Below are positions 27,001 through 33,000 of a stretch of 64,000 nt of DNA, one piece after another (the stretch's first letter is position 1; every line of letters starts with the position of its first letter). Position numbers: made by a program. The stretch lies in the NCBI GenBank assembly GCA_963720545.1, contig OY970399.1, forward strand, positions 3,008,001 through 3,072,000, given 5' to 3'. This DNA comes from an uncultured Acidobacteriota bacterium (GTDB lineage Bacteria; Acidobacteriota; Vicinamibacteria; Fen-336).

Positions 27001-30000
27001 TATCCGGGCCTCTTCTTCTATCTGCTTGCGCCGGTGTTCCGGGTGCTGGGCGCCTACCCAACGGCCGGGGTGCCCGGCATCCTCGCAGCGCGCGCGTTGG
27101 TCGATGCCTTCGGCGTGCTCGACGTCGCGCTCGTCTACCTCCTTGGGCGGCGTCTCTCGGGCACCGTGGCCGGGCTGATGGCAGCCTTGTTCCTCGCGGT
27201 ATCGCCGATCGACACCTACACGGCCCAGACCGCGCGTCCCGACGTGGTGCTGCAAGCGTTCGTGACGATGGTGCTCATCGCCACGCTCACCGTCGGCGCG
27301 CGCCTGCGCGACGACGCACGCGCCGGTATGTGGATCGGCCTCGCAGCCGCGGTCAAGTTCAGCGGGGTACTGGTCTGCGTGCCCTTCGTCGTGCGCCGCC
27401 TGCTGACGCCGGGGCCGCGGCTGCGCGGGCTGGCGCTTGCAGGAGGATGCGCCGCCGCCTTGTTGTCCTTGTCGATGATGGTGTCGTTCTTTCGTCCCGC
27501 CGCGCTCGAACGCGGCATGGCGAACCAGTGGGGCTACCACTTCAGCAGCGGTTTCGGCACCCGCTTCCTCGAGGTCTCGGGGTACTTCACAAGGATGGTC
27601 CTGTGGCGGCAGATGGGCGGCGTCCTTTGCGTGTTCGCAGTCTGCGGCGCGCTCGCCGGATTGCGGTCGCGGCAGCTGCGTTCCGGAGTGTTGCCGCTCT
27701 TCGTGTTCATTGCCACGACCATCGCCGTGCACTCGCTGGCTCAGGCGCGCTTCGCGCGCTTCCTGGTGCCGGTCACGGGCGCTTTCTGCGTGCTCGCCGC
27801 GCTCGGCATCGAGCTCACCGCACCACGGCTGCGGCTGCCGGCAGCGGCGCTGGCGCTCGCGGCCGCGGCGGCTCCCTTCTGGATCTCGTTCGACGGCGCG
27901 CGCCGGGTGGCGCGGCCGCACGCCTGGGACGCGGTCGCCGACGCCCTGAACGCCGCCGCGCCGCCGGGTTCCGTGGTGTTTCTCGACGCCCCGGGCATGG
28001 GACTCGACCGCGAACGCTACCTGGTCGTGGACGCGAACGGCGATACCGCGATCGACGCCGCGGCGTTGCGGGAATGCGACTACGCGGTGCTCTCGCCACG
28101 CCTGCGAAATGGCTTGGAGCAGGCGCCGGTCCTGGCGGAGGCGGCCGACCCGGTGCTTGGGGTCGCTGCGGCGCGCCTCGTGAAAATCGCTCCGCCGCTG
28201 CGCGGTGAGCACAGGCCGATTGACGCGGCTTCGGGGCAGGTCACAGCGGACGGTCGTTTCTTCGAGCTGACGCTGGCCCGGCCGGCCACGGTTTCGCGCC
28301 TGCGGCTGCCCGGCCTGCACCGCCCGCTCGGCGGCAAGCCGCTGCTGCTGCAGGTCTCGCCCGACGCGCAGGGCGACGCGTTCACGCCGCTGCGCAGCAT
28401 CGCCATCGCTGGTGCTCGAAATGCGCGCGATCCCATCGTGGTGTTCGCGCCCGTCGTCGCACGGCGGATTCGTTTGCGCGTGCCGCTCGGTCCGCGCCGT
28501 GCCACGCCGCCTTTCATTGCCGAGCAAGCAGCAGCGCAAGTAAACTGAAAAACCATGGCCACGCCGGCGCTCGACACTCCCATCCTCGATGTCCTCATCC
28601 GGGATTTCGGCGGCAACTATTTCTTCGCCCTCGACCTGTTCGCGGAGTACGAGCGCGACCGGCACGCCGTGGACGCGAGCTGGCGCGAGTATTTCGACAA
28701 CGCAACCGGCCGGCCGGCGGGCGGCAACGGCGCGTCGGCTGACACCGCTGAACTGCAGCCTGTAGCAGCCGCTCCAGCCGCTCCAGTGGCGGCGGCTGCG
28801 CCGGCCACCGAACCCGCGGCGACAGCGTCCAGCGACGCCCGCATCGCCGAGGTGGTGACAACGCCGCCGCCCAGCCTCGCGAAACCGGCAACCCGCGCGA
28901 TGGCGGTGCCGACCATCCTTCCCGGCGACATCGCCCAGCCGATCCGCGGCGGCGCACTGCGCGTCGTCGAGAACATGGAGGCGAGCCTTCAGGTCCCGAC
29001 CGCCACTTCGGTCCGCACCATCCCGGTGCGCACTCTCGAGGAGAACCGCCGCATCCTCAACAAGCACCGCGAGCTGGTGGGGCAGTCGAAGGTGAGCTTC
29101 ACGCATCTCATCGCCTGGGCCATCCTGCGAGCACTCGACGCCCATCCGCGCCTCAACGACGCCTACGGCGAGCTCGAGGGCAAGCCGCATCGCATCCAGC
29201 GCGAGTCGGTGCGGCTCGGCGTCGCGGTCGACGTGCAGCGCAAGGACGGCAGCCGCTCGCTGCTGGTGCCGAACGTCAAGGACGCGAACCGCCTCGATTT
29301 CCCGGGCTTCCTGAAGGCCTTCGACGACGTGGTGGCACGCTCGCGCAAGGGCACCATCTCGCCCGACGAGTTCATCGGCACGACCCTGTCGCTCACCAAT
29401 CCCGGCACCGTCGGCACCACCTCGTCGGCGCCGCGCCTGCTGCCGGGGCAGGGCCTCATCGTCGCCACCGGCGCGCTCGACTACACCGCCGAGTACCGGG
29501 CGATGGCGCCGCGCACCTTGTCGATCCTCGGCATCAGCAAGGTGATGACGATGACCTCGACCTACGACCATCGCATCATCCAGGGCGCCGAATCGGGAAT
29601 GTTCCTGGCGCGCGTCGAGGCGCTGCTGCGCGGCGACGACGGATTCTACGAGCGCGTCTTCGACGAGCTGTCGCTGCCGCACCGCCCGGTGCGCTGGGAG
29701 ATCGACGAAGCGCCGGCGCTCGGCGCCTCATCGGGCGGCACCGACGAGGCCACGTGGAAGCAGGCGAAGGTCCTGCAGTTGATCCACGCCTACCGCGTGC
29801 GCGGCCACCTGATCGCCGACCTCGACCCCCTCGACTCGACGCGCGCGCCGCACAAGGATCTCGATCCGCACAACTACGGCCTCACCATGTGGGACCTCGA
29901 CCGGGAGTTCATCACCAACGGACTCTCGGGCAAGGACCGCGCCACGCTGCGCGAGAGCCTCGACGTGCTGCGCGACACCTACTGCGGCACGATCGGCGTC

Positions 30001-33000
30001 GAGTACATGTACATCGCCGACACCGACCGCAAGGAGTGGCTGCAGCACCGCATGGAGGCGGCGCGCAACAGCAAGCACCTCGATGCCGCCGGACGGCGCC
30101 GCATTCTCGAGAAGCTGGTGGAGGCCGAGAGCTTCGAAAGGTTCCTGCACACCAAGTACATCGGCCACAAGCGCTTCTCGCTGGAAGGCGGCGAGGCGCT
30201 CATTCCGCTCCTCGACCGGGTGCTGAACGACGCGGCGCAGTCGGGCGCGGTGGAAGCGATCATCGGCATGCCACACCGCGGCCGGCTCAACGTGCTCGCG
30301 AACGTCGTCGGCAAGCCGCTGGCGCAGATCTTCAACGAGTTCGAAGGCCAGGTGGACCCGAACGCAACCCAGGGCTCGGGCGACGTCAAGTACCACCTGG
30401 GCGCCACCGGCACGCACCGCTCGCCGGGCGGCGAGCCGCTGGCGGTGAGCGTCGCTCCGAACCCGAGCCATCTCGAGTTCGTGAATCCGGTGGTCGAGGG
30501 CATGGTGCGCGCGCGCCAGGAGGCGCTCGGCGACAAGGAGCACGCGCGCGTCATCCCGATCCTGCTGCACGGCGACGCGGCGTTCGCCGGCGAGGGCATC
30601 GTCGCGGAAACGCTCAACCTCGCGGGGCTCGCCGGCTACAGCACCGGCGGCACCATCCACGTGGTGGTCAACAACCAGATCGGCTTCACCACCATGCCGG
30701 ACGACGCGCGCTCGTCCACCTACTGCAGCGACATCGCCAAGATGGTGCACGCGCCGGCCTTCCACGTGAACGGCGACGATCCCGAGGCGGTCGTCTACGT
30801 CGCCGGCCTCGCGTTCGAGTACCGCCAGCGCTTCCACCAGGACGTGGTCATCGACATGGTGTGCTATCGCCGCTGGGGCCACAACGAAGGCGACGAGCCG
30901 AGCTACACGCAGCCGCTGATGTACGCCAAGATCAAGAACCACACCTCGGTGGGCGTGCTCTACGGCGAGAACCTGGTGCGCCAGAACCTCATGACCCGCG
31001 AGGAGCTCGACGCGGTTTGGGCGGAGAAGAAGGCGCAGATGCAGCGCGAGGGCGACGGCAGCGCGTTCGCCGCCACCTCCCACAAGGACCAGACGCCGCC
31101 GGCCTCGGTCGACGCCGCCACCATGACCGAGAGACTGCGCGCCGTGCTGCACGTCCTCGGCACCGTGCCCGAGGGTTTCGAAATCCACCCCAAGCTGCTG
31201 CCGCACCTGAGGAAGCGCGCCGACCTGCTCGAGGGCAAGGGCGACGTGGACTGGGCGACCGCCGAGGCGCTGGCCTTCGGCACGCTCGTCATGGAAGGCA
31301 TCCCGGTGCGCCTCTCGGGCCAGGATTCCGGGCGCGGCACCTTCAGCCAGCGCCATGCCGTGCTGGTCAACATCCGCACCGGCCGCGAGTACGTGCCGCT
31401 CAACGCCGTGGCGCCGCCGGGCGTGCGCTTCGAGGTGGTGGACAGCATGCTGTCCGAAACCGCGGTCATGGGCTTCGACTTCGGCTACGCGGTCGCGAAC
31501 CACAACGCGCTGGTGCTGTGGGAAGCGCAGTTCGGCGACTTCGCCAACGTCGCGCAGGTGATCATCGACCAGTTCCTGGCCGCGTCCGAAACCAAGTGGG
31601 GCCAGCCGGTGGGGCTGACCCTGCTGCTGCCGCACGGCCACGAAGGCCAGGGGCCGGAGCACAGCAGCGCGCGCCTCGAGCGGTTCCTGACCCTCTGCGC
31701 CGAGAACAACATGCGCGTCTGCTATCCGTCGACGCCCGGCTCCTACTATCACCTCCTGCGCCGCCAGGCGCGCGACGTCACCGAGAAGCCGCTCATCGTG
31801 ATGACGCCGAAGAGCCTGCTGCGCCTGCCCGCCTGCACCTCGACGCTGTCGTCGCTCGCCGAGGGCGGCTTCGCCGAGGTCATCGACGACGGCCAGGTCG
31901 ACCCGGCGCGCGTGCGCCGCGTCGTGTTCCTGAGCGGCAAGCTCTACTACGACGTGGTCAAGGCGCGCGACGAGCAGCGCATCGGCGACGTGGCGCTGGT
32001 GCGCCTCGAGCAGCTCTATCCGTTCCCCGGGCCGGTCGTCGCCTCGCTGCTGCAGCGCTACGCCGCGGCGCGCGATGTCGTCTGGGCGCAGGAGGAGCCG
32101 CGCAACACCGGCGCGTGGCGCTTCGTGCGCGAGCGCTTCCTCGACGGCGAGGTCCCGGGCAACGACGGCACGCGGCTGCGCTACGTCGGCCGCGACGCCT
32201 CGGCGTCACCTGCGCCCGGCTCGTTGAAGCTGCACCAGGCCGAACAGGAGCAGATCGTCGCGGAGTGCCTCAGCCAGTCGTAGCCGGCTGCGGCAGCGCC
32301 TGCGGCGCCACCACCCGGTTGCGGCCGCGGCCCTTCGCTTCGTAGAGCGCGCGGTCCGCTAGGATCACCAGCGAGTCGTCGCCGGTTGCCTGCATCGCGT
32401 CCAGCATGGCGATCCCGATCGAAACCGTCAGGCGCAGCACCAGCCCCTTCGAGACGTAGACCTCGGCGGCGGCGGCGGCGCGCAGCCGCTCGGCGACGCC
32501 GATCGCCTCCTGGAGGCTCGTCTCCGGCAGCACCACCAGGAACTCCTCGCCGCCGAATCGGCCCATCGAGTCCTGCGCGCGCAGGCACTGGGCCACGGTG
32601 CCGACGAACTGGCGCAGGACGTCGTCGCCGGCATGATGGCCGTGGCGGTCGTTGATCCTCTTGAAGTGGTCGATGTCCACCATCAGCACGCCCATGCTGG
32701 CACCGGAGCGCCGCGAGCGCGCTTCCTCCTTGCGCAGCAGCTCCTCGATGGTGCGGCGGTTGTAGGTTTCGGTGAGCGAGTCGAGGGTGGCGAGCCGGTG
32801 CAGCTCGCCGTTGGCGCGCTCGTGCAGCATCAGCACGAAGCCGAAGCCCAGCAGCACCAGCACGTGATAGGTGAAGAACGAAAGGTCCTGCAGGTAGGTG
32901 ACGGTGGTGGTCACGGGCGACGCCTGGTTGAGCGCGACGCCGAAGCCGCCGCGCGCGACTTCGGTGACGCCGGCGGCCAGGAAGCCGGCGCCGGTGAAGA

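Follow-up and report, generated by a model that had tools for sequence, protein, structure and literature searches.

An intact gene in the window (the whole 64,000-nucleotide stretch of DNA analysed) encodes a full-length E2o-E1o fusion of the OdhA/Kgd type, i.e., a predicted Krebs-cycle 2-oxoglutarate dehydrogenase made as one 'Actinobacteria-typical' fused protein in a soil-type Acidobacterium. The gene belongs to a known, already named family and the new part is its spread, since the same fusion is, as judged from sequence matches, common in at least two bacterial phyla besides Actinobacteria.

The open reading frame (Table 1) begins with ATG, contains no internal stops and has a GC content of 0.69, 0.45 and 0.94 at codon positions 1, 2 and 3, which is typical of genuine genes of the host. 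In an NCBIfam search, NF008907 ('multifunctional oxoglutarate decarboxylase/...') matched residues 15-1240 over profile positions 11-1240 of 1241 with 1681.4 bits (cut-off 878), and the E1o part scored above both NF006914 (1196 bits, cut-off 764) and TIGR00239 (1057 bits, cut-off 770). The E2o core was indicated by a 143-bit match to 2-oxoacid_dh (PF00198), and the E1o part contained E1_dh (residues 523-829), Transket_pyr (898-1090) and OxoGdeHyase_C (1096-1238). No match to PF00364 (lipoyl) or PF02817 (PSBD, E3-binding) was noted in the fusion chain by Pfam, and the genome-wide scan likewise gave no lipoyl match at the locus. The helical N-terminal segment, which scored slightly below the PF16078 cut-off (25 versus 27 bits), could be aligned to the N-termini of M. 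smegmatis KGD (MsKGD) and C. glutamicum OdhA (CgOdhA); its proposed E2-docking role is taken from the literature (PMC7568260; 10.1101/2020.07.24.212647, section 9).

Table 1. Features of the window, with positions counted from its first nucleotide
Feature	Position	Strand	Evidence
odhA/kgd-type gene, fused E2o-E1o 2-oxoglutarate dehydrogenase, 1242 aa	28555..32283 (including stop)	+	ORF, NF008907, solved homologues
N-terminal helical segment, residues 19-50, proposed E2-docking element	28609..28704	+	PF16078 2-oxogl_dehyd_N
Ala/Pro-rich flexible linker, residues 51-127	28705..28935	+	Sequence; gapped low-similarity stretch versus MsKGD/CgOdhA
E2o succinyltransferase core, residues 128-358, without lipoyl domain or PSBD	28936..29628	+	PF00198
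E1o ThDP-dependent 2-oxoglutarate dehydrogenase part, residues 397-1240	29743..32274	+	NF006914, TIGR00239
Helix alphaE equivalent, residues 814-832	30994..31050	+	Alignment mapping; PMC10415282, section 8
2-oxoacid:acceptor oxidoreductase alpha subunit, KorA-like	52422..54278	+	TIGR03710, 655 bits versus cut-off 482.75
2-oxoacid:acceptor oxidoreductase beta subunit, KorB-like	54281 (putative start)..55318	+	TIGR02177 PorB_KorB

Alignments to the solved structures extended from end to end (query 17-1235 for MsKGD, 8p5r_A, and 17-1238 for CgOdhA, 8p5t_A). The E2o catalytic DHR motif, TSTYDHRIIQGAESG, was identical in MsKGD and aligned without gaps to both solved enzymes, and the E1o stretches PHRGRLNVLAN, GDVKYHLGATG and LHGDAAFAG...VVNNQIGFTT were nearly identical to those of MsKGD and CgOdhA, with the last of these, the ThDP-binding motif, also ungapped against 8p5r_A and 8p5t_A. 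The region of the OdhA-specific helix, an insertion in the E2o core at Cg residues 296-302 according to PMC10415282 (section 6), was of equal length and ungapped at approximately residues 320-326, with Thr321 and Ile324 at the positions of the salt-bridge residues Cg Arg298 and Glu301. The intact reading frame, Pfam layout, NF008907 match and alignments thus bear out the preliminary description of this gene as a full-length OdhA/Kgd-type fusion.

The genome, a single contig of 4.09 Mb and 94.8% complete, contained only three PF00198 matches, i.e., the fusion and E2 proteins encoded at 553 kb and 3.774 Mb, and a lipoyl domain adjoined an E2 core only in the latter two. None of the six genome matches to PF00676 was SucA-like, a tblastn search of the genome with the E1o part returned only itself and weak E1alpha/beta matches, and the best score in the genome for AceE (homodimeric E1p; TIGR00759) was 42.8 bits against a cut-off of 859.9. 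These results agree with earlier statements that stand-alone sucA and sucB are absent and that the two lipoyl-bearing E2 proteins both belong to E1alpha/E1beta operons. One of these, E2_A (genome 3774126-3775520, minus strand), is a PDH E2 by TIGR01349 (457.9 bits, cut-off 445), and the E1alpha and E1beta of its operon likewise exceeded PDH cut-offs. The other, E2_B, is a 488-residue protein encoded in an lpd-E1alpha-E1beta-E2-lipB operon at 549-555 kb, flanked by lpd and the lipoyl(octanoyl) transferase gene.

We consider it probable that the fused enzyme acts in a hybrid complex built on E2_B, its gene having been gained by transfer within the phylum in place of sucAB. The E1o part would decarboxylate 2-oxoglutarate on ThDP and reductively succinylate a lipoyl-lysine, and the protein's own E2o core, in a predicted hexameric assembly, would transfer the succinyl group to CoA. 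With no lipoyl domain in the fusion protein, the swinging arm and E3 would be supplied by another complex, with E2_B as the lipoyl donor. The resulting assembly would be akin to the actinobacterial PDH/ODH supercomplex, on an E1alpha/beta-type complex and without AceE or an OdhI-type inhibitor.

The view that 2-oxoglutarate oxidation must borrow lipoyl domains would hold for this OdhA route but not for 2-oxoglutarate oxidation overall, because genes for a KorAB-type oxidoreductase lie in the same window, about 20 kb downstream of the fusion gene; this enzyme is a possible lipoyl-independent route and might account for some or all of the flux, so that oxidation does not necessarily depend on the lipoyl route alone. 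Mycobacterial Kgd has reported decarboxylase and carboligase activities, forming succinic semialdehyde or 2-hydroxy-3-oxoadipate. A lipoyl-free main role for the present fusion as 2-oxoglutarate decarboxylase or carboligase, with the KorAB-type enzyme performing the oxidative TCA step, is nevertheless improbable, even though decarboxylase activity is listed in the NCBIfam family name and the alpha subunit exceeded its cut-off, with the beta subunit slightly below (257.8 versus 261.9 bits). The DHR motif is strongly conserved across four phyla within a single clade (support 100), which would be hard to explain if the enzyme had no succinyl-lipoyl substrate. Fusion and classical SucA were mutually exclusive in a 400-genome sample, as expected for functional equivalents, and 2-oxoglutarate is only a putative substrate of the KorAB-type enzyme.

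Several comparisons point to E2_B as the likelier lipoyl donor. With the fused E2o domain as query, E2_B was the sole other match in the genome. Its best NCBIfam model was that of actinobacterial E2p (TIGR02927), although the score of 404.9 bits was below the cut-off of 423.45, and its top solved relative was 9y7v_D, a 553-residue E2p chain with two lipoyl domains (355 bits; next best 249). Identity to the lipoyl domains of actinobacterial E2p was 57% (93 bits) for E2_B as opposed to 38% (52 bits) for E2_A, and that to the lipoyl domains of acidobacterial SucB was 44% and 37%, respectively. E2_A ends in a canonical knob (...LLENPISLFV). The C-terminus of E2_B, ...LQEFDEGSL, is without the canonical P-x-x-L-L-L knob and carries an aromatic-acidic motif, similar to but shorter than the actinobacterial ...EEGNFEDELGL; orthologues show EAGQFSL, ETGEFDLG or ESFDEALL. 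In the actinobacterial hybrid system, the core of the partner E2p is made trimeric by an insertion of three residues, Phe included, ahead of the terminal helix (PCI).

Among 30 fusion genomes sampled from the 75 found (see below), 29 contained E2_B orthologues of at least 49% identity, and E2_B was the only E2 besides the fusion in 16 of the 30, a number that rises to 17 when the E2_B of G246, which is interrupted by a TGA, is taken as a single gene. One fusion genome (G228) had a canonical E2 only, and a fusion-bearing Planctomycetales MAG had a single E2 with a canonical end (...EDPSLMLL). The odd C-terminal motif is not tied to the fusion because, of 30 genomes sampled among those retaining classical SucA, nine also had E2_B-type proteins that share it. 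In the E2 tree, E2_B, SucB and actinobacterial E2p formed an unresolved three-way split in which E2_B did not group specifically with actinobacterial E2p, and E2_B has one lipoyl domain as compared with two or three in the actinobacterial E2p found here.

Borrowing from E2_A, or from both E2 proteins, would be in line with the assignment of E2_A as a bona fide PDH E2 in an operon whose E1 subunits fit PDH models, with the PDH E2 being the donor in Actinobacteria (PMC10415282, section 6) and with an FHA gene directly upstream of the E2_A operon, an arrangement retained in G058. We regard such borrowing as unlikely, given that the genomes lacking a second E2 kept the E2_B type, that the E2_A lipoyl domain is less similar to those of E2o and actinobacterial E2p, that E2_A ends in a canonical knob and that the FHA protein is of a generic, family-confined kind. 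The donor implied by the earlier FHA argument was the PDH operon; E2_B is favoured over it by C-terminus, lipoyl-domain identity and co-occurrence in fusion genomes.

The FHA protein in question, g03273, had been called OdhI/GarA-like, a likeness that score, architecture and distribution reduced to the generic FHA fold. OdhI/GarA is a small FHA inhibitor with an N-terminal phospho-Thr peptide and docks on helix alphaE with a phosphomimetic Asp. Against the OdhI model, g03273 scored 53.8 bits (cut-off 200) and did not surpass other FHA proteins of the genome, and its match to OdhI was equalled by that to the FHA domain of Rv1747. An N-terminal FHA domain is followed by about four C-terminal hydrophobic helices, as in a membrane-anchored type, no N-terminal phospho-threonine peptide was found in the sequence, and a search for orthologues found none outside its own family. 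Thus, g03273 is a predicted generic membrane-anchored FHA protein confined to its family. Among the nine of the genome's 12 FHA proteins that were scanned, the best score for the OdhI/GarA equivalog (NF041660) was 59.2, against a cut-off of 200. In the equivalent of alphaE, the docking site for the FHA inhibitor in actinobacterial enzymes (PMC10415282, section 8), Glu824 occupies the position of MsKGD Asp795 and Arg831 is conserved; across the clade this acidic position varied, with E/D/E, S/E/A and A in families f1, f56 and f41, respectively.

Spread was determined with one 520-residue query spanning the E2o-E1o junction. The host's assignment to Acidobacteriota was borne out by a phylum-level draw of genomes around a MAG titled Pyrinomonadaceae, which gave the same genomes and placements as a draw around the host genome. 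In a sample of 400 other Acidobacteriota genomes of at least 90% completeness, the fusion was found in 75, representing 18 of 97 family codes, which extends the earlier count of 12 in 60. Full-span matches at E <= 7e-165 were noted in 73 of the 75, counting G351, where a contig end cuts the match (query 24-479), and the remaining two (G328 and G197) were weaker partial matches. None of the 75 genomes was among the 74 E1o-only matches listed. The range was wider than the one phylum previously named, with full-span matches in 11 of 40 Bacteroidota, 2 of 40 Planctomycetota and 17 of 40 Actinomycetota; the first of these phyla is the one to which MAGs titled 'Bacteroidetes bacterium SZAS-89' and 'Ca. 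Kapaibacterium' belong. Four of the actinomycetotal matches lay in frames of 1474-1727 residues and may be of the full-fusion kind (LB-PS-E2-E1). Within the host's own class, the fusion was limited to family f1 in the 400-genome sample; the 39 other genomes from this class all lacked it, 27 of them gave an E1o-only match, and sucA adjoined an E2 gene in three of four that were looked at.

In the trees, fused E2o domains from all phyla formed one clade (support 100) and fused E1o parts a clade separate from classical SucA of Pseudomonadota and others (support 99-100). The present fusion grouped with those of families f56 and f41, both of other classes (support 100), consistent with a probable intra-phylum transfer that brought the gene into this lineage in place of classical sucAB. 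Bacteroidota and Acidobacteriota sequences were interleaved rather than forming two clean clades. Non-actinobacterial fusions are described as isolated cases in 10.1101/2020.07.24.212647, and the restriction to family f1 within the class would suit a single, recent acquisition from an actinobacterium without wider meaning. That reading is very improbable and is contradicted by the spread and the trees: carriers occur in three phyla besides Actinomycetota, the closest relatives come from Acidobacteriota (62-80% identity) instead of Actinobacteria (approximately 50%; 48-57% for E2o and 50-54% for E1o against named fusions), actinobacterial sequences formed their own clade (support 98) away from the present fusion in every tree, and codon-position GC agrees with the host genome. 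The trees placed the actinobacterial clade nested within others, and AU tests did not reject the alternatives (p 0.06-0.08). Tentatively, and with the balance somewhat against it, the OdhA-type fusion might not be an actinobacterial invention but have arisen once in, or spread early among, Acidobacteriota/Bacteroidota, always beside a knob-less E2, and have been acquired later by the ancestor of Actinomycetes and Acidimicrobiia. If so, Gram-negative soil phyla would commonly possess hybrid low-symmetry 2-oxoacid dehydrogenase supercomplexes, and an E2 without the canonical inter-trimer knob would be the permissive background.

Compared with C. glutamicum OdhA (8P5S-8P5X) and M. smegmatis KGD (8P5R; PMC10415282), the present protein has the same domain order, length and catalytic motifs, an N-terminal helical segment, no lipoyl domain or PSBD and a segment of equal length at the site of the OdhA-specific E2o helix. 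It differs in its host, an Acidobacterium without AceE, in a candidate partner E2 that has one lipoyl domain and belongs to an E1alpha/beta operon, in the lack of an OdhI/GarA equivalog among the nine of 12 FHA proteins scanned, and in the replacement of the phosphomimetic Asp by Glu at a position variable in the clade and of the helix salt-bridge residues, which are not kept. With classical SucA and SucB of E. coli and most other Acidobacteriota sampled, the fusion shares an E1o part that likewise exceeds sucA models and presumably the overall reaction, whereas its E2o core is fused ahead of E1o and has lost the lipoyl domain and PSBD. The full fusion of Thermoleophilia (LB-PS-E2-E1; 10.1101/2020.07.24.212647, section 9) also combines E2 core and E1o in one chain but, as described there, keeps the lipoyl and E3-binding domains and is without the N-terminal helical segment, the opposite on both counts of the fusion found here.

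The odhA gene, which encodes the fused E2o-E1o 2-oxoglutarate dehydrogenase, showed GC contents of 0.69/0.45/0.94 at the three codon positions, the same pattern as real genes of this 70% GC genome. Pfam searches placed a 2-oxogl_dehyd_N segment at residues 19-50 of the protein (25 bits, slightly below the cut-off of 27), a 2-oxoacid_dh acyltransferase core at residues 128-358 and three E1o domains that together span residues 523-1238; no lipoyl or E3-binding domain was found in the protein by the same search. Residues 15-1240 matched NF008907, the NCBIfam model from which PGAP takes the product name "multifunctional oxoglutarate decarboxylase/...", with 1681 bits against a cut-off of 878. 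The protein aligned end to end with the solved enzymes of Mycobacterium smegmatis (MsKGD, 8p5r_A) and Corynebacterium glutamicum (CgOdhA, 8p5t_A), and no gap interrupted the alignment in the catalytic stretch of E2o, TSTYDHRIIQGAESG, or in the ThDP region. These findings, together with the intact reading frame, bear out the preliminary description of a full-length Kgd/OdhA-type fusion. It is a real and intact gene of a family that is known and has already been named; its 90% cluster also holds a near-identical metagenomic fragment, which already goes by "multifunctional 2-oxoglutarate metabolism enzyme". The neighbours of odhA have no metabolic relation to it. The second of two tandem glycosyltransferase genes stops six bases ahead of the odhA start, and the three genes may be co-transcribed.

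Features of the window and of the genome that contains it (G000)
Feature	Location	Strand	Remarks
PMT_2-type glycosyltransferase, first of tandem pair, ~574 aa	window 25090-26811	+	directly upstream of odhA, with the second
PMT_2-type glycosyltransferase, second of tandem pair, ~574 aa	window 26824-28548	+	directly upstream of odhA
odhA	window 28555-32283	+	single ATG-started frame, 1242 codons
2-oxoacid:acceptor oxidoreductase alpha subunit (KorA type)	window 52422-54278	+	655 bits, cut-off 482.75
2-oxoacid:acceptor oxidoreductase beta subunit (KorB type)	next frame, to window 55318	+	257.8 bits, slightly under cut-off 261.9
Fused E1alpha-E1beta protein, 701 aa	G000 257661-259766	-	no adjoining E2 gene
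Operon B	G000 549-555 kb		order lpd, E1alpha, E1beta, E2, lipoyl(octanoyl) transferase
Fused E1alpha-E1beta protein, 726 aa	G000 3408915-3411095	-	no adjoining E2 gene
Operon A, canonical PDH	G000 3.774-3.778 Mb	-	E1alpha, E1beta and E2 all above PDH cut-offs
FHA protein, 302 aa	G000 3777628-3778536	-	between PDH operon A and large NAD-glutamate dehydrogenase
Large NAD-glutamate dehydrogenase, 1418 aa	G000 3778539-3782795	+	divergent from FHA gene

The spread of the fusion was evident from searches with residues 101-620, a query that covers E2o, linker and E1o. Matches across all three parts were obtained in 75 of 400 other acidobacterial genomes, all at least 90% complete (74 of 397 when three unpublished genomes were left out), in complete frames of 1130-1400 aa apart from three matches that were partial or truncated where a contig ends. 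The 75 genomes belong to 18 of 97 family codes, 30 of them to the single family f40, and none was among the 73 genomes that gave the 74 E1o-only matches listed. Thus, the earlier claim that the fusion is common in Acidobacteriota holds on this larger sample. Among 39 other genomes of the window's own class, none had the fusion and 27 gave an E1o-only match. In samples taken without a completeness filter, the fusion was present in 11 of 40 Bacteroidota (the phylum to which the MAGs titled "Bacteroidetes bacterium SZAS-89" and "Ca. Kapaibacterium" belong), 2 of 40 Planctomycetota and 17 of 40 Actinomycetota (15 of 38 minus unpublished genomes). Four of the actinomycetotal matches (G486, G501, G502 and G495) have open frames of 1474-1727 aa, which exceed the length of OdhA and may represent a full lipoyl-PSBD-E2-E1 fusion. 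In acidobacterial family f41, G382 alone among many sampled genomes carried the fusion; in most of the rest, among them its congener G350, the fusion and E1o matches were both absent and only weak E2-type matches were obtained, while G133 and G199 gave E-values of about 1e-41, within the E1o-only range. This looks like a lineage mostly without the dehydrogenase in which there was one recent gain.

Fused E2o cores from all phyla formed one clade (support 100, 25 rows). In the E1o tree, the fusions without exception, and six E1-only sequences with them, were separate from classical SucA (support 99-100). These six proteins of about 955-990 aa, from Gaiellaceae/Thermoleophilia (L076, L078, L084 and L107) and Gemmatimonadota (L112 and L129), grouped with the fusions rather than with classical SucA (support 98-100), and may be either secondarily unfused or of the unfused ancestral type. 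Actinomycetota fusions formed one clade (support 98) nested within a clade (support 98-99) that also held the acidobacterial families f43/f57 and f48/f63/f81, and Bacteroidota fusions were interleaved with acidobacterial ones in the FastTree topology. AU tests did not reject trees in which acidobacterial fusions plus the sequence L066 were held as one clade (p 0.080, log-likelihood loss 40.4) or in which all non-actinobacterial fusions were so held (p 0.061, loss 60.2). Neither test reached significance, and both groups were chosen after inspection of the tree, so the trees are compatible with either direction of transfer. The fusion of G000 grouped with those of families f56 and f41, which belong to other classes (support 100), a placement that fits acquisition through transfer inside the phylum.

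The assembly of G000, a single contig of 4.09 Mb that is 94.8% complete, contains PF00198 matches in three places only, namely the fusion and two E2 genes, and six PF00676 matches, which comprise the fusion, two operon E1alpha genes, two fused E1alpha-E1beta genes and one weak match. No second E1o was detected by tblastn of the whole genome, in which the E1o-part query matched only itself, and no AceE was found, the best score being 42.8 bits against a cut-off of 859.9. The genome thus lacks stand-alone sucA and sucB genes, as previously stated. That 2-oxoglutarate oxidation must borrow lipoyl domains from another complex, as was also proposed, agrees with the lack of such a domain in the fusion, but the necessity of borrowing is weakened by the KorA- and KorB-type genes located about 20 kb downstream of odhA, whose predicted product may provide an alternative route. 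In having an OdhA-type enzyme alongside a KorAB-type oxidoreductase, the genome recalls mycobacteria.

Where a lipoyl arm is lent to the fusion enzyme, the likelier lender would be E2_B, the 488-aa E2 of operon B, for which sequence comparisons make a better case than for the PDH E2 of operon A (E2_A). The top model for E2_B was that of actinobacterial E2p (TIGR02927; 404.9 bits, under the cut-off of 423.45), its closest solved relative was a 553-aa two-lipoyl E2p chain (9y7v_D; 355 bits, runner-up 249), and its lipoyl domain was 57% identical to those of actinobacterial E2p, compared with 38% for the PDH E2. E2_B was also the sole other match in G000 to the fused E2o domain. The C-terminus of E2_A is ...LLENPISLFV; that of E2_B, ...LQEFDEGSL, is without the canonical Pro-x-x-Leu-Leu-Leu knob and has an aromatic-acidic motif resembling ...EEGNFEDELGL of four actinobacterial E2p.

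In a survey of 30 of the 75 fusion-bearing acidobacterial genomes, drawn from across the 18 families, E2_B searches gave matches in all 30; in 29 of them the match reached 49% identity or more and had a non-canonical tail (EAGQFSL, ETGEFDLG, ESFDEALL, ENWSEDVL and others), whereas the exception, G228 (440 contigs), showed a canonical E2 only. By PF00198 count, the E2_B type was the sole E2 besides the fusion in 16 of the 30. In a seventeenth genome, G246, the only E2_B-type gene (C4:1561744-1562425, L194) carries an in-frame TGA, which may reflect an error in sequencing, recoding or decay to a pseudogene. In G280, the E2_B core is present in three near-identical copies, each on a contig of its own (C5:884335-885021, C14:5558-6244 and C15:5344-6030), either through assembly duplication or as a real multi-copy gene. 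A strict link between E2_B and the fusion is disfavoured, since the E2_B type with a similar tail was also present in 9 of 30 classical-SucA genomes sampled, E2_B, SucB and actinobacterial E2p fell into a three-way polytomy, and a Planctomycetales MAG that carries the fusion has a single E2, whose end is canonical. In that tree, E2_B was not recovered as a specific sister of actinobacterial E2p.

The FHA protein encoded upstream of operon A had been described as OdhI/GarA-like, a reading that its features do not sustain. The OdhI model scored 53.8 bits against a cut-off of 200, and 27-59 bits for eight further proteins among the twelve FHA domains of G000. The protein matched the FHA domain of Rv1747 (2.4e-9) as well as that of OdhI (5.4e-9), its FHA domain (residues 44-106) is followed by about four hydrophobic helices indicative of membrane anchoring, and orthologues were detected solely in two genomes, both of its own family. 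In one of them, G058, FHA-PDH synteny is kept: the FHA gene precedes the PDH E2 core by about 3.4 kb, both being on one strand. On alphaE, the helix where the FHA inhibitor docks in actinobacterial enzymes, the equivalent of MsKGD Asp795 is Glu824 in the fusion, and Arg831 is retained. Asp occupied this position in the 20 actinobacterial sequences, without exception, and in those acidobacterial families that lie closest to them; within the clade of G000 it was E/D/E in the window's own family (f1), S/E/A in f56 and A in f41. Given this variable acidic position and the scores and architecture of the FHA protein, GarA-type control of the fusion is unsupported here. That the FHA gene adjoins a large glutamate dehydrogenase gene (region also given as L016:11628-16795) is a curiosity; the large glutamate dehydrogenase of mycobacteria is a GarA target.

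Judged by titles and abstract openings, no literature on the fusion in Acidobacteria was found, and sections 6 and 8 of PMC10415282 leave Acidobacteria unmentioned. A 2020 preprint (10.1101/2020.07.24.212647) speaks of "few isolated cases" outside Actinobacteria, a commentary (PMC8740704) restates a strict correlation, and the structural literature treats the OdhA fusion and the accompanying reduced E2p core as found in Actinobacteria alone and, for that reason, as targets for selective drugs. What is usefully added here is how broadly the gene is distributed, which specific partner is predicted for it, and that the OdhI analogy is removed. Where metabolic reconstructions of abundant soil phyla expect separate sucA and sucB genes, the fusion also corrects them. 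When species genomes are sampled evenly, the fusion is seen in about one fifth of Acidobacteriota and one quarter of Bacteroidota, usually accompanied by a knob-less E2, in many cases the sole E2 of the genome. Such genomes provide natural, independent test cases both of whether the fusion needs the dismantled E2 core and of how a single set of lipoyl arms serves two E1 enzymes.
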